Source of the DNA: a virus
Lineage: Duplodnaviria > Caudoviricetes
Virus record (IMG/VR): IMGVR_UViG_3300042691_019112
Coordinates: 1,197-65,196 of that record
Strand: one strand, 5' to 3'
Length of the DNA stretch: 64,000 bases
This document shows, piece after piece, positions 247 through 28,647 of the stretch. The first letter of the stretch is position 1, and each line of letters begins with the position of its first letter. The position numbers were made by a program, and so were the translations under genes. The notes beneath the pieces were generated by a model. The model searched no databases. It worked only from the letters and a program-made list of their open reading frames with translations, and was not told the DNA's origin.

Positions 247-429
247 ATGGAAAACAAACCCTCTGCTGACGCAAAACCCGTGTTACCTGCCGTGCATTAT
301 GCACCATACGGTGAATGGGGTGGAGAACGTGTTAATTGCAATAGGTATTTTACTACTGATGTAGCACATACAGGAAATAAAGATAAAGTGACTTGTAAAT
401 TCTGTCAGCGTCTTTTGCATGGCAGGTAA
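247..429 (+). CDS. small putative zinc-binding protein, cassette-encoded (copy 1)
   Basis: H...C...VTCxxC motif; 47 of 48 codons from LPAV onward encode the same residue as in 14822..15037. Confidence 0.8.
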   Translation: MENKPSADAKPVLPAVHYAPYGEWGGERVNCNRYFTTDVAHTGNKDKVTCKFCQRLLHGR

Positions 430-430
430 C
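282..430 (+). mobile_element. integron-like gene cassette A, copy 1
   Basis: Starts GTTACCTGCCGTGCA and ends TGCATGGCAGGTAAC (15-bp inverted repeat, 1 mismatch); second copy has the same boundaries. Confidence 0.7.
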
Positions 431-546
431 GTTTGGGGCTTTGTGCAGGTGGGGATTTTAGCACCCAGGCTGAATTGAAAAACAAATGCTCAACCTACTA
501 CAAATGTTTCATAGTAGTACGTCTGCCCCACTTGCACAAAACCGAT

Positions 547-553
<7 letters not shown>
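423..553 (+). repeat. attC-like recombination site
   Basis: GGTAAC (to 430), arm TTTGTGCAGGTGGGG (440-454), arm CCCCACTTGCACAAA (526-540), then GTTAGGC (547-553). Confidence 0.7.
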
Positions 554-1156
<603 letters not shown>

Positions 1157-1714: not shown

Positions 1715-1751
1715 TAAGCCATTACGCATAACCCCTAAACACAAATAACCA

Positions 1752-8024: not shown

Positions 8025-8125
8025 GATTACAAAGGTATGGGGTGTTAAAGAATGTTATTGTATGCGTGCATATTTTGCAGATATAGGGCAAATATGGAGA
8101 TTTGGTCAACGCAAAACACGAAGCT

Positions 8126-8350
8126 ATGAACGCACAAACCTTTGCTTCATTAGAAGCAGAAAAGCAAGAACTTATAAAAAAGTTCGACATTCTGAAAGCT
8201 AAATTTCAGAAGAAGTATTCATCCGTAAATATCGAAAGTCCTGTTAGTGACGAGGAGAAAGCCGACAAAGAAGAGCTTAATAAGATTGCTTCTCGGATGA
8301 ACCAGATTGTCATTCAAAAGAGAATGATGCTTAAAGTATCTACACTATGA
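8126..8350 (+). CDS. hypothetical coiled-coil protein
   Basis: ORF coupled to the next gene. Confidence 0.55.
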   Translation: MNAQTFASLEAEKQELIKKFDILKAKFQKKYSSVNIESPVSDEEKADKEELNKIASRMNQIVIQKRMMLKVSTL

Positions 8351-10518: not shown

Positions 10519-10881
10519 ATGGAAAAGAATTTCACAGAACTGCACGTAGGCGGAGTGTATTTGAGGAGGGATGGGAGGGTTGATTGGATTGATATTAAAG
10601 ACGATGGAAATCGTGATTATCCTTTCAAGCCTAAAGGAGGCTACACGTATTCACCAAACGGAATTTTTATAAAAAGTCAAGAACACGATTACGACCTCGT
10701 TCAACACCTATGCGACATCGAAGACCTCAAACGCCTTCCCGAAATCATGGCCGAAAATGAACGGCTGAAAGCGGAGATGCAGAAAAATGCAGCAGATGGG
10801 CAATCCTACATGGAAGAATGTCATAATGAAATTATCAAGCTGAAAGCGGAAATAGAGCAACTTAAAGCAGAAAAGCCATGA
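10519..10881 (+). CDS. protein with an N-terminal repeated domain and a coiled coil
   Basis: LHVGGVYLRRDG...YPF...DYDLVQ. Confidence 0.7.
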   Translation: MEKNFTELHVGGVYLRRDGRVDWIDIKDDGNRDYPFKPKGGYTYSPNGIFIKSQEHDYDLVQHLCDIEDLKRLPEIMAENERLKAEMQKNAADGQSYMEECHNEIIKLKAEIEQLKAEKP

Positions 10882-11030
10882 AATACGCTATTGCTTTTGT
10901 TCTATGTTACCTCTTTTTCGCTTTTATTTTATGGGAAGTAAACCCATCTAATTGGAGCGAACAAGCAAGAGTGGGTTGCGTAATGTCTTTTTTTACGCTC
11001 ATGCTTTTAATTGAACTTAAACCAAAATAA
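10878..11030 (+). CDS. small membrane protein (50 aa)
   Basis: Hand-translated MKYAIAFVLCYLFFAFILWEVNPSNWS...; coupled at both ends. Confidence 0.55.
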   Translation: MKYAIAFVLCYLFFAFILWEVNPSNWSEQARVGCVMSFFTLMLLIELKPK

Positions 11031-14803: not shown

Positions 14804-14820
14804 TGGATTGTGTGTTTGGG

Positions 14821-14969
14821 GTTACCTGCCATGCAAAAGACGCTGACAAAACTTACACGTTACCTTGTCCTTATTGCCAGTATGTGCTACATCGGTGGCG
14901 AAATATCTATTGCAATTAACACGTTCACCGCCCCATTCGCCATAAGGCGCGTAATGCACGGCAGGTAAC
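14821..14969 (-). mobile_element. integron-like gene cassette A, copy 2
   Basis: 149 bp with the same GTT...AAC ends as 282..430. Confidence 0.7.
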
Positions 14970-15037: not shown

Positions 15038-15094
15038 CGTATTGTGTTTAGTTGTGTGTTTTGGGGTTGGCGGTCAGGCTAAAAGACACCCCTG

Positions 15095-15331
15095 TTAATC
15101 TTCATATTTGGTAATTTGAACATCTAAAAATTCATCATCACTTTCGAGAACATCCATAAAATTTAAGTAGCCTTCAATAACTGAATATTGTTCTCTTTCT
15201 CTTCTTTCCTGGACATCTTCAAAATTCAAATCTTTGATTTTCTCGTAATCGCTTTCGTCCATTTCAACGCTTTGTTCAAAGTGCATTACTTGTTTACACT
15301 TAATGGTAACTGATACTTTTTTTTCTGACAT
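15095..15331 (-). CDS. hypothetical acidic protein
   Basis: 78-aa AT-rich ORF followed by GCCTGACCGCCAAC (cassette-like 3' end). Confidence 0.65.
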   Translation of the reverse strand: MSEKKVSVTIKCKQVMHFEQSVEMDESDYEKIKDLNFEDVQERREREQYSVIEGYLNFMDVLESDDEFLDVQITKYED

Positions 15332-15412
15332 TTTTTTAGGGTTTGCTTTTACGCCCCAAACCCCGCATTTGTTTCAGTGCGGGGCGGTTTAATCCCATCG
15401 ATTTCGATGGAA

Positions 15413-19336: not shown

Positions 19337-20138
19337 ACTCTTTGATGGTATTTATGAAGGCATCCGCTTCCTTGGCGGTGATACCTGCTTTGATAAGCTC
19401 CAGCTTGGCAGGGGTTTCTTCACCGTACACCTTCTTCATCATGCCTGTCTTCCAGTACGACAACAGCGTTGCTCTCTGTTCTGCCGACATCATAGGCTCT
19501 CCAGCAGATGCAGGAGGTGGTGGTGTAACTGGCGTAAGTTGAATACCCGTAACAGGTGCAGGTGTTGCAGCTTGCTTAGGTGCAGGAGGAGTGGTTTTAG
19601 GCTTGCGTTGATAGCCACCTTCGTGCGGCTCTGGAGTGCGGCTATCAGGGTCTTTGCTATCTCCCTCTGGGTCTTTGGTAGGTATCTTGAACGCAGTAAG
19701 AAGCAGGTACTTGTCTGCGATAGAGGCGGTCTTATTGTAAACCTTATCGCCTGTATCTGCTGCCTCTCCCATGAGTGGTCCTACCGTGAACCTACTACCA
19801 TCTTCCGCAAAGAAGTCGGCCATATACAAGCCCAGCACGCGCATCTTAGCAGTACCGCTCTTGGTAACGCCTTCCATCTCGTCGGACATCACAAGCCTGA
19901 ATCGACAGATGATACCATTCTCGGCTAACAAAGGCTGAATGTGGTTATACACATCGTCGATACCTCGGTAGTTAAAGCCTTGGTCTTTGTTTTTCTGGTC
20001 TTTGCCGATAGCGGATATACCCTTCATGACTTTAATCATGGCAGGGATAATCATGCCTGGCTTTCCATCTGCAAGGTAGCCGCAATCTAACGGGTCTTTT
20101 GGTTGCAGGTGTGCGTAATTCTGAAACGTGGTTTCCAT
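19326..20138 (-). CDS. ERF-family single-strand annealing protein
   Basis: IGKDQKN..QGFNYRGIDDV, GEAADTGDK..NK..S.A.KY.L...F.IPT. Confidence 0.85.
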   Translation of the reverse strand: METTFQNYAHLQPKDPLDCGYLADGKPGMIIPAMIKVMKGISAIGKDQKNKDQGFNYRGIDDVYNHIQPLLAENGIICRFRLVMSDEMEGVTKSGTAKMRVLGLYMADFFAEDGSRFTVGPLMGEAADTGDKVYNKTASIADKYLLLTAFKIPTKDPEGDSKDPDSRTPEPHEGGYQRKPKTTPPAPKQAATPAPVTGIQLTPVTPPPPASAGEPMMSAEQRATLLSYWKTGMMKKVYGEETPAKLELIKAGITAKEADAFINTIKEYGQ

Positions 20139-20147
20139 ATCGTGTTA

Positions 20148-21077
20148 TTAAAAAGGATCAACATTTACTTTCTTCTTCCATGCTGGCACTTCGTAGGGTA
20201 CTGGCATGGCTATGTAGCTGGAGGGTACAGCTATATTCCCTTCGTGGTAGTCTATGATAGACTGTAACGCCACCTCGAAGTCCTGCTTGGCTTGCGCCCT
20301 TGCAGATACCGTGATGTAGTAATCTTGGATACCAAAAGGGGGCTTCTTGGACAAGGCGAGAATCTTTCTTTCCACCTCTACCGTTTCGGGTAGGATAGAC
20401 GATAAGGCCATAATCTGCGTGTAGTCCTGAATATCGTAGCGGAACTTGTCGATGTCGCGCAGGAAGGCGGAGGGGTGTGCATCGTCGGTAGTCTTGAGGT
20501 CGGTGATGATGGCTTTGATTATCTCGCCATCTTCATTGTGAACTATTTGCAGGAAGTCAAACCTGCTTTTGAAGACGTACCCACATGATAGTGGGGTGTA
20601 TAGACTCACTTCTCGGAAGGTGCTTACAAGGTCTTGGTCGTCGAAGTGTTGCGGCCATTCGGAGGCCATGTAGCAATCCATGAGCGTTTCAAAGTTGGCG
20701 TAATCCTCTTTGTCTATGAGGATTTGGCCGTTAGCTTCTGCTTCGGAGTAGATTCTCTCTTTCCACTCCTTGTTGACTTTCGCTCCAAAGGTCTGCTCTG
20801 GGCTTGGTCGTTGGTCGGGGTCAAAGACTACGTAGGTGCTGCCGAAAAGATCTGGGGTTATGATAGCGCAATGTATCATGGTTCCTAAGTCCATAGCGGA
20901 GGACTTTTTCTTCACGGCTTTGAAGAAGTGATAGTGCCGTAACGAGGTTATGGCATCTTTGATGGTGGACGATTGAAGCGCGGGCGCGTAGAGGTAAGCG
21001 TCGAAGTCGTCACCTACTAAGGCGTTTAGTGGGTACTTGTCGAGAAGCTCACCTGTCCAATTTTCTGTTTTGGTCAT
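20148..21077 (-). CDS. RecE-like PD-(D/E)XK exonuclease (DUF3799-like)
   Basis: AMDLGTMIHCAI, KSRFD, ITDLKTT, FRYDIQ. Confidence 0.85.
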   Translation of the reverse strand: MTKTENWTGELLDKYPLNALVGDDFDAYLYAPALQSSTIKDAITSLRHYHFFKAVKKKSSAMDLGTMIHCAIITPDLFGSTYVVFDPDQRPSPEQTFGAKVNKEWKERIYSEAEANGQILIDKEDYANFETLMDCYMASEWPQHFDDQDLVSTFREVSLYTPLSCGYVFKSRFDFLQIVHNEDGEIIKAIITDLKTTDDAHPSAFLRDIDKFRYDIQDYTQIMALSSILPETVEVERKILALSKKPPFGIQDYYITVSARAQAKQDFEVALQSIIDYHEGNIAVPSSYIAMPVPYEVPAWKKKVNVDPF

Positions 21078-21136
21078 GGTTCAAAGATGGTTTGTATTAA
21101 AAAACCTATTTGTTAGGCTTTGTTAATTTTGCTTGT

Positions 21137-21421
21137 ATGGGAAAGGTTACGAAGAAAGACCCTTATACGGAGCTGCTGTATTGGTCTTTGTTGAAGTGTT
21201 GCCAATCAGCGAGGGAGGCCGCGTGGTTGTGTATAAAGGAGAGGAAGTTGGACGTGGGTGCTGTTTGCGCGGAGTTGGAGTTGCCGGAGAAGAAGGTGGC
21301 GCATTGGCTGGATTGTAAGAAGAAGCTGGTTATGAGCAAAGCACCGAGGGATAGGGATATTATGATACTGCTTCGGCACTTGGGTGTCGAGGTGTCTGTG
21401 TCGGTTACGAGGAGTAGGTAG
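21137..21421 (+). CDS. putative HTH regulator
   Basis: Cro/CI-like helix pattern; divergent from the recombination operon; TAATTTTG 5 nt upstream. Confidence 0.5.
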   Translation: MGKVTKKDPYTELLYWSLLKCCQSAREAAWLCIKERKLDVGAVCAELELPEKKVAHWLDCKKKLVMSKAPRDRDIMILLRHLGVEVSVSVTRSR

Positions 21422-21435
21422 TTGCGTGTTTAGGG

Positions 21436-21721
21436 GTTAGGCGTAATTTTAAATATCCGTATTGCCAATTCCTAACAAATCGACAAGGTCAAACATTTCA
21501 CTACTACCCCACTCATTGACAATATTAAACTGCCATTCATTATCATAAAGCTGCTCTTGCATTTCAGCATCTTTTACTTTTACTCCCCACCAATTACCAT
21601 CTGATGCCAATGTTAGAATATCGCTATTCTTTTGAATAGTCAGTATCTTATCACGAAACGACATTTTATTAAATCGTTCTGCCATTTGACGATACTGCTC
21701 CAAAGAAAAACTACGCCTAAC
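21436..21721 (-). mobile_element. integron-like gene cassette C
   Basis: On the minus strand starts GTTAGGCGTAGTTTT and ends AAAATTACGCCTAAC; preceded by CTTGCCAAACCGAT like the attC arm at 531-546. Confidence 0.7.
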
Positions 21722-21787
21722 ATCGGTTTGGCAAGATTGGGATTTTTGTTCTGAATTGTTCATTTTATCTAAATTGCTAATTTTCAT
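21449..21787 (-). CDS. hypothetical protein, cassette-encoded
   Basis: AT-rich ORF whose N-terminus runs through the GTT site (QTDVRRS). Confidence 0.7.
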   Translation of the reverse strand: MKISNLDKMNNSEQKSQSCQTDVRRSFSLEQYRQMAERFNKMSFRDKILTIQKNSDILTLASDGNWWGVKVKDAEMQEQLYDNEWQFNIVNEWGSSEMFDLVDLLGIGNTDI

Positions 21788-21803
21788 ATTAAGTGTTCGT
21801 TTT

Positions 21804-22133
21804 TTAGGTAGGGTTATTTTGAGTTAGTTTCTCCCAAAGTTTATCTGTTAACGCTTCGACTGTCTCCTTCATAGCGTTATTGCTTGTAAAGACCCCGACA
21901 AAGACTGTCTTGGACTTCTTTGTAGGCTTTACCCAAATAGGTATGTTCACTTGGATAAACTGCGCTAATTGCTCCTTATCGGTAAAAAGAGGAGGGGTTA
22001 CAGGTTGGCGCAACGCTATTTCAAGCCCATCAATGACGTTTTGTGTAGTATGGGCGTATTTGTCTTCTTGCGCCCTTTTTAGCTGGTCAAGTGCTTCATC
22101 GAACAGCTTTCGGCTTATTGTTATCGTTTGCAT
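21804..22133 (-). CDS. hypothetical protein
   Basis: Likely start MQTIT. Confidence 0.55.
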   Translation of the reverse strand: MQTITISRKLFDEALDQLKRAQEDKYAHTTQNVIDGLEIALRQPVTPPLFTDKEQLAQFIQVNIPIWVKPTKKSKTVFVGVFTSNNAMKETVEALTDKLWEKLTQNNPT

Positions 22134-22146
22134 TGGAATTACGTAA

Positions 22147-22434
22147 CTACCTTTTGCACTCTTGAGGTATCGCAATACCATCGATATACCACCCAGCGTC
22201 AGGGAAGGGTAATATAGCGTGCCATAAAACCTTTCCATCAATGAACCACACATTACCATACAAATCTTCTTCCTCCTCGTCGTAGTCGAAGTCTATCTCC
22301 TTCAAGAAGTCGCTAAACTCCTTCTTGGTGTAGCCTTCCTTGAGTATGTAGGAAGCGTTGTTGTACTCAATCTTGGCGCACCTAACGTCTGGGCGACCTT
22401 CCAACGCCTCTATCAGCTCCATCTTAGCGTTCAT
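22147..22434 (-). CDS. hypothetical protein
   Basis: MNAK.EL...LKEGY...FL..IDFDYD...LYG.VWF.DG, a pattern common in phages. Confidence 0.7.
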   Translation of the reverse strand: MNAKMELIEALEGRPDVRCAKIEYNNASYILKEGYTKKEFSDFLKEIDFDYDEEEEDLYGNVWFIDGKVLWHAILPFPDAGWYIDGIAIPQECKR

Positions 22435-22691
22435 ACCTGCTGTTTTTTAATCTCCCCAATAGCTTGAAGGTGGTGTATCCTAACAAGCTCGTCGGACACT
22501 TTCAGCATGAAGCCCGAAGCAACATCGTTGTCGCAGTACTCCGAAAGCGAAATATCCTTAACCGACAAGCCTCTAACGTCAAGTTCCTCATGCAAAGCCT
22601 TAGCCTCTAAGCGGATAGCGTTGACCTCTTCTTCCAATGCAAGCAGCCTGTCTATGACAGCTACGTACCTCTGTTTTTGCGCGGTGTTCAT
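22431..22691 (-). CDS. hypothetical protein
   Basis: 86-aa ORF; TACATTTG 5 nt upstream. Confidence 0.6.
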   Translation of the reverse strand: MNTAQKQRYVAVIDRLLALEEEVNAIRLEAKALHEELDVRGLSVKDISLSEYCDNDVASGFMLKVSDELVRIHHLQAIGEIKKQQV

Positions 22692-22737
22692 GTAGGCAAA
22701 TGTAGTTTACGGCTAAATATCAGATAGTTAAACAATG

Positions 22738-23592
22738 CTAAATATCCATTAATTGGCTCAAAGCATACCTACAACCGGACAATATCTCATTCCTATATTT
22801 TGACACTAAGGCCATTTTTGCTTTAACCACAGCCTTGTGATACATCTTCTGATGAACCTCTGGCATCCTATCTATTTCCTCTTTTTTATACATCCCTCTT
22901 TCTATGATTTCATTTAAGGCTTTCTTAGCCTTGTTTTCTTCTCGGCTAAGGTCTATACCCATAGATTGCAAGATGTCTAAGCAAGCGGCCTTTTTGGCGG
23001 ATAAAATCTCATTTTCAGGCGGAGCGATATACCCACGTTTGTATGCTTCGTTGTACGTGTATAGCAAAAGCCCTTCAATACCCTCTTTCAGGGCGGAGTT
23101 GTAGAATGTTTTTCCATAGAAGTCTTGCTTCTCAAGTTCGGTCAAAGCATAGATCATCGACTTGAGGTTGGCGATAGTCCGCTCCTCTTTGCTCATAACC
23201 TGCTCTTGCTTTTGCTTAAACTCTGCTTGTACGGCTTCGTTTCTTTCGTAGCAAGTGCTGTAAGCGAGAATCCATTGCAGTAGGAGTTTCATGTTGAAGC
23301 TGATGTATTCACCAAACTTCCCAGCACGTCCTTCCTGAAAGACTATGATAAGTTCATTGGCTTTCATGTGTGGGTAGTTTCGTTTTATTTCAGGCACTAC
23401 CATCCCAACAGCAACTCTCATGGCTTCAAGTTCTGTTTCTTGACCGCAGAATAGGTTTGTTTTAGCCCATTCTTTGATGATTAGGTCTTCCATTTTGGAA
23501 GGTTCTGCTTCTCTGATGGAAGCACCGCGTCGCATTTCGGTTATCTGCTCTGTTAGCGACTTGTTTACGATTGTGGAGAGTTTATTTTCCAT
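22738..23592 (-). CDS. replication-associated protein (possible helicase loader)
   Basis: Directly downstream of the initiator; EL...F..G..GKFGEY motif. Confidence 0.55.
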   Translation of the reverse strand: MENKLSTIVNKSLTEQITEMRRGASIREAEPSKMEDLIIKEWAKTNLFCGQETELEAMRVAVGMVVPEIKRNYPHMKANELIIVFQEGRAGKFGEYISFNMKLLLQWILAYSTCYERNEAVQAEFKQKQEQVMSKEERTIANLKSMIYALTELEKQDFYGKTFYNSALKEGIEGLLLYTYNEAYKRGYIAPPENEILSAKKAACLDILQSMGIDLSREENKAKKALNEIIERGMYKKEEIDRMPEVHQKMYHKAVVKAKMALVSKYRNEILSGCRYALSQLMDI

Positions 23593-24481
23593 CTTGCTCT
23601 TTGATGATTTGTAGGTAGTTGAGGACGGCTTTGCCTTGCTTGCTTATTTTGGGCTTATCGAAGTTGATGTACTCGGATTTTTTGAGGCTTTTGCAATAGG
23701 CGGAGAAGTGGGAGTGAAGTCCAGGCCATGTGGTGTGGTAGAACTGGCAGTTGGTTATGAAAAACTTTTGAAAGGCATCAAGCACGATGTGTTCTTCAAG
23801 CCATACCTGCATCATGCAGAACTTGTGGACGTTTCGGTTTATCCACGTGTGCAGTTTCTCGTCCTCGATAGATTCAAATTTCTCACCACCAATCCAAAAG
23901 CCTTCGGGCTTAGTTCGGCTCGAATTTTTTTTCGAGGCCGTAATAGTAGAATGTTTAATTACTGGAGTAGTAGAATTATTATTAGACTGTTTATCTAATG
24001 GAGTATTATCTGCATTCTTTTTCTCTATTTCTCCCTCTCTTTCTTCTTCTATTTCTATTTCTATTTCTATTTCTTTCTTCTGCCCGAGTAGCTGGGTAGG
24101 TAGCTGGGTAGGTAGCTGGGTAGGTAGCTGGTCTTTACTCGCAGCAGCCTCTTTTGCTCCTTCGCTTCTCGTAACATATTGTTTTACAGATTCATCAAGC
24201 CATTCACTTGAAACAAAGCCTGAACGAGAAATGGTAAACATTCCACTTTCGTGTAAAATGTAATGCAGCATTTCTTCATTATCCGTGACGCATCTATAAC
24301 AAAACTTTGACAAGATTTCGACATTAGACTTAAAGCCTTCTTGTCGTGATAAAAATGCCAACATTTTCATGGTAACGCCTATCCCTTCGTTAGGATAATG
24401 AATGTCGATGGTTTGCCAAACTTGCTCTGAATCAAAGTTGCTTGACACCTTAAACCACGGTATTGCTTTCTTAGAAGCCAT
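23582..24481 (-). CDS. phage replication initiator (lambda O-like layout)
   Basis: WFK start, low-complexity QLPT and EIEIE linker, C-terminal domain. Confidence 0.7.
   Translation of the reverse strand: MASKKAIPWFKVSSNFDSEQVWQTIDIHYPNEGIGVTMKMLAFLSRQEGFKSNVEILSKFCYRCVTDNEEMLHYILHESGMFTISRSGFVSSEWLDESVKQYVTRSEGAKEAAASKDQLPTQLPTQLPTQLLGQKKEIEIEIEIEEEREGEIEKKNADNTPLDKQSNNNSTTPVIKHSTITASKKNSSRTKPEGFWIGGEKFESIEDEKLHTWINRNVHKFCMMQVWLEEHIVLDAFQKFFITNCQFYHTTWPGLHSHFSAYCKSLKKSEYINFDKPKISKQGKAVLNYLQIIKEQDGK
24088..24131. repeat. 12-bp tandem repeats (candidate iterons)
   Basis: GTAGCTGGGTAG three times plus an 8-bp partial copy, next to a TCTATT repeat. Confidence 0.75.
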
Positions 24482-24489
24482 GATTATTA

Positions 24490-24602
24490 AAAACCAAAAA
24501 CCCCGAACATAGGTGGTAGCAGTCACCTATGACGGGGTATGGTGTTTGGATTGTATCCAATTTCTTATCGCCTGCTACAACGATTTTCACGTAGCAAACT
24601 TA
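24490..24602 (-). promoter_or_regulatory. structured leader of the initiator gene
   Basis: TAAGTTTG at 24595-24602; hairpin 24501-24537 plus T run; loop complementary to 24572-24578. Confidence 0.55.
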
Positions 24603-25860: not shown

Positions 25861-26225
25861 CCCCACACGAATTTAGAGCATGGACAGGTCAACACATGGC
25901 CTACCAAGGCGAACCCGACCTCGAAACACTATCATCCTTCATGCACCACTACTCAAACTGTCCGCTCATGCTCTTTACAGGCAGCGTTGACAGCACCGGA
26001 AGGAAAGTGTATGAAGGCGACATCGTGCGAATGTGGATAGAAGATATGACCGAAGATGCAAAAGGCTTCTGGTGGATAGCGGAAGTAGCCTACGAGAAGT
26101 CGGCATTCAGGCTTAAACAGGTAGGCTTCGACTACATCAACGAGGACGCTATGCTCGTCCATGAGCTTATCGAACATTGCGAAGTAATAGGCAACATCTA
26201 CGAACCAAACAATGAAGGTAATTAG
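25845..26225 (+). CDS. YopX family protein (second paralogue)
   Basis: FRAW, LMLFTG..D..G.KVYEGDIV, EVIGNIYE. Confidence 0.85.
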   Translation: MSTQVTPHEFRAWTGQHMAYQGEPDLETLSSFMHHYSNCPLMLFTGSVDSTGRKVYEGDIVRMWIEDMTEDAKGFWWIAEVAYEKSAFRLKQVGFDYINEDAMLVHELIEHCEVIGNIYEPNNEGN

Positions 26226-27252
26226 CCTATTCAGTGGTATAGGCGGCTTTGAAACTGCTGCCGAATGGATGGGATGGACAAACGTTGTTTCGTGCGAAAT
26301 AAACGAGTTTGGAAATCACGTACTTCAATACTACTGGCCTAACGCTTACCATCATTCGGACATTCATACTCTAACAGGAAATTTAATCAATGAGCAAGCA
26401 GAAAAAAAATTTGGTGAAAATTGGAGAGCAGGGGGGGTTATTCTCACAGGAGGCTTTCCATGCCAGCCGTTCAGCCTTGCAGGGCAAAGAAAAGGGACAG
26501 ACGATAACCGATACCTCTGGCCGGAAATGCTTAGAGTCATTCGGGAAGTTCAGCCGGATTACGTCGTGGCAGAAAATGTTTTCGGAATCCTTAATCTCGA
26601 TGGAGGGGTGGTTTTCGAGCAAGTGTGTGTTGACTTGGAAACTTCGGGCTACGAAGTTCAAACGTATGTACTTCCAGCTTGCGGTGTCAACGCTCCGCAC
26701 AGAAGGGATAGAGTTTGGTTTGTTGCCTACCGTAACATCGATGGACAGCACGGGAGCAACAGCCAACATGAAGTCAACGCAAGTGAAGGAAGGGTCAATG
26801 CACAGCGTGACACTTGCGAGAGCCTTAAGCATGAACCTACTTCCAACGCCAAGAGCGAACAAGGTCAATCAATGCGACTTAAACAGCGAGAATTTAGCAA
26901 GCCGGAACAAGGGAAATTTGGAGGAAACAATAGCGAAAATGGTTGTAAGCGGACTACTACCAACGCCAGCGACCAGGGATTACAAGGGGTCACGGTCAAC
27001 AGAAGCGTTAGAAGAAGCAGGAAGGAATCATACCAACAGCCTACCGGATTATTTCATCCAAACTGGGAAAAGTTCCCAACTCAATCCCCTGTTTGTAACG
27101 GAACTAATGGGGTTTCCTCCGAACTATCTTCTATTACCCTTTCTAAATGGCGAAGAGAAGCCATAAAGGCAATGGGTAATGCAATCGTCCCACAAGTAGC
27201 ATTTCAAATTTTCAAAGCAATACAACAAACTCATGACCAAAGACCAATTTGA
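26212..27252 (+). CDS. dcm: C5-cytosine DNA methyltransferase (motifs I-VIII and X)
   Basis: SLFSGIGG, GGFPCQPFS, ENV, HRRDRVW, GNAIVP. Confidence 0.92.
   Translation: MKVISLFSGIGGFETAAEWMGWTNVVSCEINEFGNHVLQYYWPNAYHHSDIHTLTGNLINEQAEKKFGENWRAGGVILTGGFPCQPFSLAGQRKGTDDNRYLWPEMLRVIREVQPDYVVAENVFGILNLDGGVVFEQVCVDLETSGYEVQTYVLPACGVNAPHRRDRVWFVAYRNIDGQHGSNSQHEVNASEGRVNAQRDTCESLKHEPTSNAKSEQGQSMRLKQREFSKPEQGKFGGNNSENGCKRTTTNASDQGLQGVTVNRSVRRSRKESYQQPTGLFHPNWEKFPTQSPVCNGTNGVSSELSSITLSKWRREAIKAMGNAIVPQVAFQIFKAIQQTHDQRPI
26390..27166 (+). CDS. alternative-frame polypeptide nested in the methyltransferase gene (putative second subunit)
   Basis: 258-codon open frame with three LLPT repeats and motif-IX-like QLNPLFVTELMGFP. 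Confidence 0.65.
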   Translation: MSKQKKNLVKIGEQGGLFSQEAFHASRSALQGKEKGQTITDTSGRKCLESFGKFSRITSWQKMFSESLISMEGWFSSKCVLTWKLRATKFKRMYFQLAVSTLRTEGIEFGLLPTVTSMDSTGATANMKSTQVKEGSMHSVTLARALSMNLLPTPRANKVNQCDLNSENLASRNKGNLEETIAKMVVSGLLPTPATRDYKGSRSTEALEEAGRNHTNSLPDYFIQTGKSSQLNPLFVTELMGFPPNYLLLPFLNGEEKP

Positions 27253-27973
27253 GGATTTAGTGAAAGCCCAAGACGGCAAACTCACATGGCGGTTAGCATC
27301 AGAGATAATACGCAATGTAGGCGTAAAAACCCTGCATAAAAACATCGGCATCGAAGCCATATATCTCATAAGCTACACCAACGCCTCTACATCAGTAAGC
27401 CACAACAGCTTCTACTCCCCCTTCCGTAGTGCCTTCAAGAAAGCAAGGCTATTCACCACATTCAAAAGACCTAAGCTCAACCGCTTCAAAGGCCAAAGCG
27501 ACGACGAACTACCCAAGTATGGCCTTCGCATGAGCCAAGAAGAGCTTGTGGCCTTCATTCAAAAGCACCGCGTTAACAAGGTTACATACAAGGATATTGC
27601 AGCCATGCTCAACATCTCGTCCGCCAGCCTATACCGTTATTCAGGCGGCTACTCCGACGGTATCAAGCACCTGCGTAACCAGCATTACAAGTCGCCTAAC
27701 GTACCGCGAAAGTTCGACAACTCGATTGTACGACATAGGGTGGAGAAGCCCGAATGTGAGGCTTTGCGCTTGTATAAGGATAAGTTTATGTCGGATATAC
27801 CCAACATTACGGAAGCAGATGTGGCCTTCATCAAAGCACGATACAGGGCGCATTTGACAGGCGACTTTAGGGATTTGCCACGTCACTACCAGCATCGTAG
27901 GCGCGTGGAGCTTAACTGCAATAAACTCGGTTGGACTGAACCTGTACGATACGAATGGCAGAAAGCAGTATGA
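27233..27973 (+). CDS. HTH-containing protein
   Basis: TYKDIAAMLNISSASLYRY. Confidence 0.65.
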   Translation: MTKDQFEDLVKAQDGKLTWRLASEIIRNVGVKTLHKNIGIEAIYLISYTNASTSVSHNSFYSPFRSAFKKARLFTTFKRPKLNRFKGQSDDELPKYGLRMSQEELVAFIQKHRVNKVTYKDIAAMLNISSASLYRYSGGYSDGIKHLRNQHYKSPNVPRKFDNSIVRHRVEKPECEALRLYKDKFMSDIPNITEADVAFIKARYRAHLTGDFRDLPRHYQHRRRVELNCNKLGWTEPVRYEWQKAV

Positions 27974-28647
27974 TAACAGGCTACAAGGACAAGCACGAAT
28001 ATACCGATGAGCGCGGGATTCATTCCGTTGTTTACCTCATGGACTGCATGGATTTAATGCAGCAATTGCCCGATAAATCAATCCAGCTTGCTTGCGTTGA
28101 CCCTCCTTATGGGATTGGGGTTAATATATCAATGGGAAGAAGAAAGGGTGATAAAAAAAGCGATTACCATAAATTTTACGGTAAAGATTTAAGCATACCG
28201 CCAAAAGAGTATTTTGATTTTTTAAAGAAAGTTTCTGTTAATCAGATTGTTTGGGGTGGTAATTATATGACAGAATATCTTCCACCTTCATCATGCTGGC
28301 TTTTGTGGGATAAATTATTTTCTGAAGATGTAACCTTTGCTCAATTTGAATTAGCATGGACTTCTTTTGATTCAAGCGCAAAAAAATTCGACAAGCACCC
28401 TGCAGAAGCTAACCGCATTCACCCAACCCAAAAACCGACCGGTCTTTATAATTGGATTTTTGCACGATACGCAAAAGAAGGCGATACCATCTTAGACACT
28501 CACTTAGGTAGTGGCTCCAGCCGCATTTCAGCCGCTAAGGCAGGACTTCCGTTTATAGGTTGTGAATTGGATAGCGAGTATTTCTACCAGCATTGCAAGC
28601 GATTTGACGCATTCACAGCGCAAAAAACGATACTATTCCCAAAGTAA
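27970..28647 (+). CDS. N6-adenine or N4-cytosine DNA methyltransferase (beta class)
   Basis: DPPY, HPTQKP, ILDTHLGSGS, GCELD. Confidence 0.9.
   Translation: MITGYKDKHEYTDERGIHSVVYLMDCMDLMQQLPDKSIQLACVDPPYGIGVNISMGRRKGDKKSDYHKFYGKDLSIPPKEYFDFLKKVSVNQIVWGGNYMTEYLPPSSCWLLWDKLFSEDVTFAQFELAWTSFDSSAKKFDKHPAEANRIHPTQKPTGLYNWIFARYAKEGDTILDTHLGSGSSRISAAKAGLPFIGCELDSEYFYQHCKRFDAFTAQKTILFPK

Follow-up and report, generated by a model that had tools for sequence, protein, structure and literature searches.

Where does translation of a small phage gene begin when the repeat-bounded segment that carries it lacks the ATG of its relatives, and does the DNA in front of that segment supply the start? The question arises at cassette C in the window, by which we mean the whole 64,000-nt stretch of DNA analysed here. 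The window covers almost the whole of a complete virus genome, a 65-kb record that has terminal repeats. It encodes ThyX, an Erf-type annealing protein, an exonuclease, methylases and structural genes; short tandem repeats at 24020-24131 lie inside an ORF at 23582-24526, whose protein has PTQL and EI repeats. With the exonuclease gene as query, no relatives of the window phage were found in IMG/VR. Among 50,697 phage records, no named phage matched positions 20000-24000 (blastn) or the C protein (tblastn).

Ends, flank and reading frame of cassette C

Cassette C (21436-21721, minus strand) is a segment bounded by repeats, GTTAGGCGTAGTTTT...AAAATTACGCCTAAC, with inverted ends of the form GTTA...TAAC. 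Read on the minus strand, its left arm (GTTAGGCGTAGTTTT, 21721-21707) and right arm (AAAATTACGCCTAAC, 21450-21436) are 15 nt long and pair with one mismatch. The whole 65,196-bp genome holds 86 GTTA...TAAC pairs with arms of at least 9 nt, one mismatch allowed, compared with 40-65 such pairs in 20 shuffles. Arms of 15 nt occur only in C and in the cassettes that we call A, A' and B; the next best pair has 13 nt.

An earlier note on this DNA had claimed that the flank before C is nearly identical to positions 531-554, and this proved correct. The left flank of C, CTTGCCAAACCGAT followed by GTTAGGCG, matches CTTGCACAAAACCGAT followed by GTTAGGCG at 531-554, and the 16 bases at the left edge, AAACCGAT and GTTAGGCG, have a second copy at 539-554. 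This 16-mer, AAACCGATGTTAGGCG, has exactly two copies, at 539-554 on the plus strand and at 21714-21729 on the minus strand. Likeness between the left edges of C and B extends over 30 nt (87%), of which 22 lie within the cassettes. An exact 16-mer repeat within 64 kb is not rare by itself; this one carries weight because it is placed at two cassette edges and is part of the 30-nt extension.

The claim that the ORF of C starts upstream and reads through the site also holds. From its first upstream ATG the ORF encodes 112 amino acids (21449-21787, minus strand) and reads ...SCQTDVRRSFSL... through the left end. In-frame ATGs lie upstream at -42 and -66. The more distant one (21785-21787), an alternative start that would give the 112-residue form, stands 16 nt past the TAA of the upstream gene (21806-21804). 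The nearer one (21763-21761) gives a form of 104 residues and opens a leader of 14 codons (21722-21763) that runs to the GAT preceding GTT. Inside the cassette, at 21716-21718, there is an AGG codon where 70 of 120 homologue clusters have an ATG start (GTT ATG CG), and the right arm has CCT, not CAT. C thus lacks the core ATG and has in-frame ATGs upstream, but a TTG at L29 and an ATG at M35 within it are possible starts as well. In the numbering of the 112-residue form, the folded domain of the product spans approximately residues 24-112. The C and A proteins have no Pfam or PHROGs match, and the C model has no PDB match at E<=0.001 in Foldseek.

One attC-like site and the cassettes beside it

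The sole complete attC-like site of the genome (431-546, plus strand) runs from the TAAC of A to the GTTA of B, with stem arms at 437-454 and 526-543. It consists of TAAC, 6 nt, an 18-nt stem at 89%, a loop, the returning stem, 3 nt and GTTA, folds as a long stem, and has a palindrome score of 13 against a shuffle maximum of 9.5. The site aligns with 20 sites from other contigs. From aligned sites of other contigs we built a covariance model, R1, which is our own and not the curated attC model; it finds about 40 sites in the loci fetched, at up to 120 bits, and gives site 431-546 74.3 bits. R1 detects no second site in the window and has no match upstream of C at E<=1, where the right arm only is found and the left arm is absent. 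An imperfect palindrome of about 57-141 nt between ...AAC and GTT..., as expected of attC, is accordingly present at 431-546 and not upstream of C. The earlier reading would have failed if the upstream segments did not resemble attC arms in a wider alignment, and they do: the site family numbers about 40, and the last 20 nt of the C leader (21722-21741, CCCAATCTTGCCAAACCGAT) repeat the right arm (526-546) of site 431-546. The cores RYYYAAC and GTTRRRY fit B and C (GTTAGGC / GCCTAAC) but not A (GTTACCT) or many sites of a second phage contig, G001 (GTTATGT, GTTATAA, GTTAACC); T-GTTA is the sole invariant core part across the sites compared. A 21-codon ORF (486-551, plus strand; MLNLLQMFHSSTSAPLAQNRC) starts in the loop of the site, crosses the core and stops at a TAG formed by bases 3-5 of B's GTTAGG, an arrangement of the ORF-11 type.

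Cassette A (282-430, plus strand; arms GTTACCTGCCGTGCA and TGCATGGCAGGTAAC) and cassette A' (14821-14969, minus strand), 84% identical to it, are both read through from outside and contain GTG but no internal ATG, as had been noted before. The A ORF (247-429) has its ATG at -35 to the G of GTTA, stops at the TAA of TAAC and yields the junction peptide KPVLPAV; the A' ORF (15037-14822) has its ATG at -68, an unrelated 22-residue leader and the junction peptide NTVLPAV. Neither has a Met besides the first residue, and in both a GTG stands directly before TTACC, ending in the G of GTTA. Among the seven members of the window's MLP/VLP type of the A family, the codon ending in this G is ATG in four and GTG in three; the other type has the core GTT ATG CC and a matching right arm, GAGGCATAAC. 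Judged by sequence, A would start at either the edge GTG or the upstream ATG, which are equally good candidates. This upstream ATG lies within an exact 13-mer, CCTTTTTGAGATG (237-249), that has a second copy at 1176-1188. Each copy ends in the ATG of an ORF, that of the A leader and that of a 49-residue ORF (1186-1335), and likeness around the copies continues upstream (..CGCAAAC..). The 13-mer might serve as an initiation module common to both ORFs, or be a scar left by recombination on either side of the A-site-B block.

Cassette B (547-1156, plus strand; GTTAGGCGATGCTTT...AAAGTATCGCCTAAC) has its own ATG, at 601, and encodes an Rv2179c-like 3'-5' exonuclease. The 5' untranslated region of B opens with 22 nt (547-568) that show homology to the beginning of the C coding sequence. 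Behind a YopX gene there is an orphan C-type right end, ATTACGCATAAC followed by CCCTAAACAC (1721-1742, plus strand), which matches the right end of C at 95% and is of the ATG type. Because the left end of B is like that of C and this orphan end stands at 1721-1732, the block 547-1732 is framed by C-type ends.

Loss of the core ATG in family C

For family C we found 166 homologues in metagenomes; 185,579 cellular species genomes yielded none. We classed the 120 listed homologue clusters of C by the residue at the junction. Seventy begin at M-R-x-F, one codon past GTT, and 11 have the junction M but are called longer. Another 32 lack the junction M and are N-terminally extended (22 with V/RR, the slash marking the junction, and 10 others), and seven are called from M35 or later (six in the 78-residue M35 form, one in a 71-residue form). 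The DNA at the junction reads GTT ATG CGT in loci L010 and L028, and GTT AGG CGT, with the right arm CGCCTAAC, in the window and in L005. In the ATG-type arms, those of L028 and of the orphan end at 1721-1732, T/A still stands at the paired position. AGG in the left arm together with CCT in the right arm therefore means that the start codon was lost and the pairing of the ends was kept.

The N-terminal extension of most V/RR clusters has one length: 17 of the 22 have a leader of 15 residues counting V (for example, MNNLEQNPQSCQTDV and MKQEIQKPQSNIAAV), which a start at the window's ATG at 21763-21761 would give as well. Cluster P0007, which appears to be the protein of L005, starts with GTG where near relatives have ATG, and in L005 this GTG and the stop TGA of the upstream gene overlap as GTGA. 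Shared ancestry could partly explain why the leader frame is open across the 22 clusters, which are not independent of one another. Comparison of the window with L005 revealed that 20 of 42 nt differ across leader codons 1-14, with 10 non-synonymous changes, so the leader is nearly unconstrained as protein. From the junction to M35 (codons 15-26) there are two synonymous changes and no non-synonymous ones, a weak count because codons 15-19 are also under repeat constraint; the rest of the gene has 17 synonymous and two non-synonymous changes.

Behind the lost ATG, Q31 and Y32 of the C protein are nearly invariant among homologues. The AlphaFold model has pLDDT below 50 for residues 1-21, and its first helix spans residues 29-40. 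The conserved N-terminal residues behind the lost ATG indicate that C requires a start upstream. The host phages probably do without Shine-Dalgarno-led initiation, as is known for Bacteroidota. ACAC, found within 25 nt upstream of 10 of 56 long ORFs compared with a 7% background, is too weak an initiation motif to choose among the candidate starts. Going by the sequence, the most likely product of C is the 104-residue form from the ATG at 21763-21761, with a start at 21787 being possible. None of the 21 runs listed for this sequence is an RNA run.

Cassette arrays and site-borne starts in other phages

A small-cassette array of approximately 20 or more sites is present in G001, a 143-kb viral contig rated 100% complete that belongs to an unrelated phage; family C and an amidase are the only genes that it has in common with the window genome (G000). 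About 23 attC-like sites of G001 (loci L002, L037, L038, L043 and L044) lie across the contig ends, at 134.8-143.4 kb and 1-829, and three more lie at 23.4-25.1 kb. Each of its cassettes has its own GTTA...TAAC ends of 10-18 nt, several of the cassette ORFs stop at the TAA of TAAC, and in 7 of 19 cassettes the reading frame opens at an ATG of the preceding site, 42-62 nt before GTTA. Two segments of L002 (941-1200 and 4815-5039) have the same terminal repeats, GTTATCACTTCGGCTT...GCTGAGTGATAAC, with unrelated ORFs and different flanking hairpins. As the same ends enclose unrelated cargo, the ends behave as a module of their own.

Site-borne starts recur in this family. We examined 31 R1-detected sites with recognisable ends, 8 of 39 having been dropped by the end rule, and counted an ORF if its ATG lay in the site and it ran at least 40 codons past GTTA. 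Eleven of the 31 sites hold an ATG whose ORF enters the next cassette, compared with 1 of 31 on the opposite strand. When the upstream 70 nt were shuffled (n = 300), the mean was 3.1 and the maximum 7, and none of the 300 shuffles reached 11. Three start architectures recur: an own start 19-39 nt inside the cassette, a core ATG (GTTATG) and an ATG in the preceding site.

Other loci showed further features of the cassettes and sites. In L024, cassettes between attC-like sites (168-851 and 989-1960) encode N6/N4 and C5 DNA methyltransferases, and both kinds are also encoded in the window, at 26212-27252 and 27955-28647. The hairpin before family C in the marine loci L011 (2930-2970) and L023 contains GGTTCAAGTCCCGCCC, which resembles a tRNA T-arm.

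The leader and the cassette as one unit

A 369-nt stretch (21430-21798, minus strand) comprising a spacer, both upstream ATGs, the leader, cassette C and CCCTAA is present or absent as a unit. It is missing from a related contig of 1953 nt from a public run (X3), in which 23328-21799 is followed directly by 21429-21007; this joint was seen in assembled contigs matched at 85% likeness, not in reads, and X3 differs from the window at 60 of 1530 nt on the first side and 9 of 423 nt on the second. Because the loss takes leader and cassette together, the leader travels with the gene. Compared with an integron unit, which is an ORF plus its own 3' attC exchanged at G/TT, the X3 unit covers the leader, the segment and 6 nt and has no 3' hairpin. 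Contigs of two other runs, X1 and X2, match the window to 21765, two bases before the leader ATG, and then diverge.

Breakpoints also fall close to the cassette ends. The motif (T)AAC followed by CCC(T/A)AAACAC stands behind four cassette-type right ends (1730-1742, 14809-14821, 15056-15068 and 21426-21438), and in the relatives X3 and X5 the variable unit ends inside it, at 21427-21429. We considered whether CCCWAAACAC behind TAAC marks gene starts in general and rejected this, as only three exact copies and one variant exist, all beside cassette ends. We likewise rejected a TA-duplicating transposon in GTTAAC: the flanks are mutually inverted only since neighbouring sites are alike, and the arrays show TAAC-hairpin-GTTA spacers. 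Elsewhere, X2 skips 15083-15345 (263 nt, with a small ORF at 15094-15331), X3 and X5 skip 8124-8344 (221 nt), and X5 replaces 10779-11028 (250 nt) by 30 nt. These skipped and replaced stretches indicate that small-gene indels are common among the relatives of this phage.

Origin of the start and alternative explanations

We think it probable that C is a decayed solo cassette that has lost its core ATG, that the leader start, an attC-like fossil, now serves instead, and that leader and cassette form one heritable unit. C would be one solitary and decayed member of a family of integron-like, attC-type cassettes in circulation among uncultured phages. Ancestrally, the gene would have begun at an ATG within the left repeat (GTT ATG CG); in the window lineage this ATG would have become AGG and the paired base of the right repeat would have changed too, so that complementarity was kept. 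We infer that the protein is now made from the ATG 14 codons upstream (21763-21761, 104 residues), possibly from 21787, and that the leader is what remains of an attC-like hairpin, namely its loop and right arm, and adds a disordered tail of about 15 residues. Because leader and cassette are inherited and lost as a 369-nt unit, the arrangement would be a fixed N-terminal extension and a fossil of a site-encoded start, not a fusion newly made by recombination in this phage. As to how the unit moved, we infer, and favour, homologous or illegitimate recombination by the phage Erf protein and exonuclease, or the action of a host enzyme. The proposal in the earlier note that the preceding attC-like arm supplies start and leader is thus partly supported: in C the core ATG is gone and the arm is copied, and 11 of 31 sites of the family carry such a start. 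B, however, has its own ATG at 601, and for A the edge GTG is an equally good start.

Site-specific recombination at GTTA (G/TT, as in integrons), in which the preceding arm gives a start and an in-register leader and turns a start-less cassette on, is an unlikely alternative, although several observations agree with it. Site-family ATGs at -38 to -63 are in frame with the next cassette at 11 of 31 sites against 3.1 expected, and the four G001 cassettes without an early ATG (sites 10, 12, 15 and 19) all have an ATG in the preceding site; survivorship alone, however, could explain why start-less cassettes are found only behind ATG-bearing sites. The window and L005 are about 91% identical from GTTA through TAAC but unrelated in the 12 nt that precede GTTA and in the flank behind TAAC, and this break within 12 nt of GTTA fits a crossover at the site better than it fits a fixed unit. 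Marine family-C loci likewise share one flank only of the same cassette (two pairs the upstream flank, one pair the downstream flank). Phage attC sites are, moreover, recombinable by IntI1 (Qi et al. 2023, PMC9892861). By contrast, searches for an enzyme were negative. The tyrosine recombinase profile PF00589 had no match in the window genome at E<=1, with the control positive in 14 of 14 genomes, and none in G001-G004, which include the 143-kb array-bearing contig, at E<=0.01; the serine recombinase profile PF00239 had none in the window genome, its control also being positive. The larger ORFs of the array-bearing loci encode methylases, Rad52 and SHOCT, with no recombinase among them, and the integrase that, with attI and a promoter, stands beside the array of a complete integron was accordingly not found in the window genome. 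There is one full site in the window and C has a half site; the leader is homologous among the V/RR members and co-occurs with the cassette, and the X3 indel removes both. For the claim that recombination builds fusion proteins and switches expression on we therefore saw no sign, given that there is no recombinase gene, that C has only a half site and that leader and cassette are co-inherited. Equally doubtful is the idea that the preceding site is a translational adapter, its ATG 38-63 nt before GTTA and in frame, such that start-less cassettes, in which coding sequence fills the segment from GTTA to the TAA of TAAC, would be expressed as leader fusions wherever they land behind such a site; if true, the shuffling of genes would itself activate them, with no integron platform involved.

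It is still less likely that translation starts inside the cassettes, at TTG-L29 or ATG-M35 in C and at the edge GTG in A and A', with the upstream frames untranslated or acting as hairpin-melting uORFs like ORF-11. That the A-family junction codon is ATG in 4 of 7 and GTG in 3 of 7 speaks for it, as do the A and A' leaders, unrelated in length and sequence, the almost free evolution of leaders, the ORF of site 431-546, which simply ends at the TAG in GTTAGG ahead of the start of B, and the 78-residue gene calls of family C. However, a start at M35 would drop 11 conserved residues of C and cut its first helix (29-40) in half. The TTG at L29 (21703-21701), which is present in both AGG-type DNAs and would give an 84-residue product with helix 1 intact, is absent from the ATG-type L010, which has TTA there. 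Leader length and an ATG or GTG start are conserved in 17 of 22 clusters, and the GTGA overlap in L005 also argues against an internal start in C. Internal starts are possible, above all for A. Very improbably, the GTTA...TAAC repeats are RNA or DNA structure elements that pair gene ends, for example in mRNA stability or processing, with cassette edges merely being gene edges: the arms do covary with pairing kept (GGCTTA/TAAGCC, GGGTTA/TAACCC and GGCACA/TGTGCC) and some L002 arm pairs use G-T pairs on the sense strand, but homology between contexts breaks off at the repeats or close to them, on either side, different cargo lies between identical ends and the inter-cassette sites have attC geometry.

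In this site family, a phage-borne relative of the integron system, about one-third of the sites between cassettes would provide the following gene with its start codon. Family C shows a transition in which the start in the repeat is lost, a compensating change keeps the repeat and a leader start would take over, as if end pairing were under stronger selection than the gene's own start. For annotators, the family may be a guide to the true beginnings of tiny phage genes, and leader versus core starts offer a testable handle on the shuffling and expression of accessory genes in recombinase-less phages.

Comparison with known systems

CALINs, clusters of attC sites lacking an integrase, have been published in virulent phages, including a Polaribacter phage, and IntI1 recombines their attC sites (Qi et al. 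2023, Front Microbiol, PMC9892861). As described there, these phage CALINs share with the loci studied here small, mostly single-gene units in one orientation, the absence of an integrase from the phage, and DNA methyltransferase cargo, which here is found in related loci. Like integron cassettes in general, they also share imperfect palindromes of about 65-130 nt, ...TAAC to GTTA..., between units, outer boxes that covary per cassette, and stops that are often in or at the TAAC box (PMC9892861). A phage CALIN in the sense of that paper needs at least two attC sites; G001 satisfies this definition, whereas the window genome has one full site. Integron boxes are 7 nt long, whereas the terminal repeats here are longer (10-18 nt); integron cores are GTTRRRY, whereas here only (T)GTTA/TAAC is conserved, with misfits such as GTTACCT and GTTATGT. 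Classical G/TT exchange would not give the co-inheritance of leader and cassette found here. The G001 array is far larger than the phage arrays in the main text of PMC9892861 (at least two attC sites per CALIN, three in phage TJE1). Searches of the literature on phage cassettes, together with the main text of PMC9892861, turned up no site-borne starts in phage arrays and no arrays of this size.

PeSL modules mediate the shuffling of small genes in T4-type phages (PMC2839356, PMC4122927). They have in common with these loci that small accessory genes, in hyperplastic regions of lytic phages, are flanked by short conserved motifs of a regulatory or structured kind, and that the motifs seem to act as recombination substrates without a dedicated integrase. 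PeSLs (promoter-early stem-loops) are promoter-terminator composites without cassette-specific inverted ends, and we know of none with GTTA/TAAC cores or site-borne start codons.

Integron cassettes are regarded as promoter-less, mostly self-contained genes, and site-borne starts as a peculiarity of attI1. The earlier note held that classical cassettes usually carry their own start, but outside starts have precedents in class 1 integrons, namely ORF-11 and ORF-18 of attI1 and the TIR-deficient and fused cassettes (reviewed in PMC8876359). According to that review, about 20% of cassettes lack their own initiation region, and AAC(6')-Ib with the N terminus of OXA-1 is an example of an N-terminal fusion (PMC8876359). 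ORF-11 of attI1, as the review presents it, is similarly a short ORF with its own start in a recombination site, spanning the crossover, and it shares with the ORF at 486-551 a stop TAG at bases 3-5 of the cassette GTTRRRY core. ORF-11 lies in the platform attI1 and acts mostly by translational coupling, whereas here the start lies in attC-like sites or their remnants, the ORF continues as the cassette protein, and site-borne starts recur in about one-third of the phage sites.
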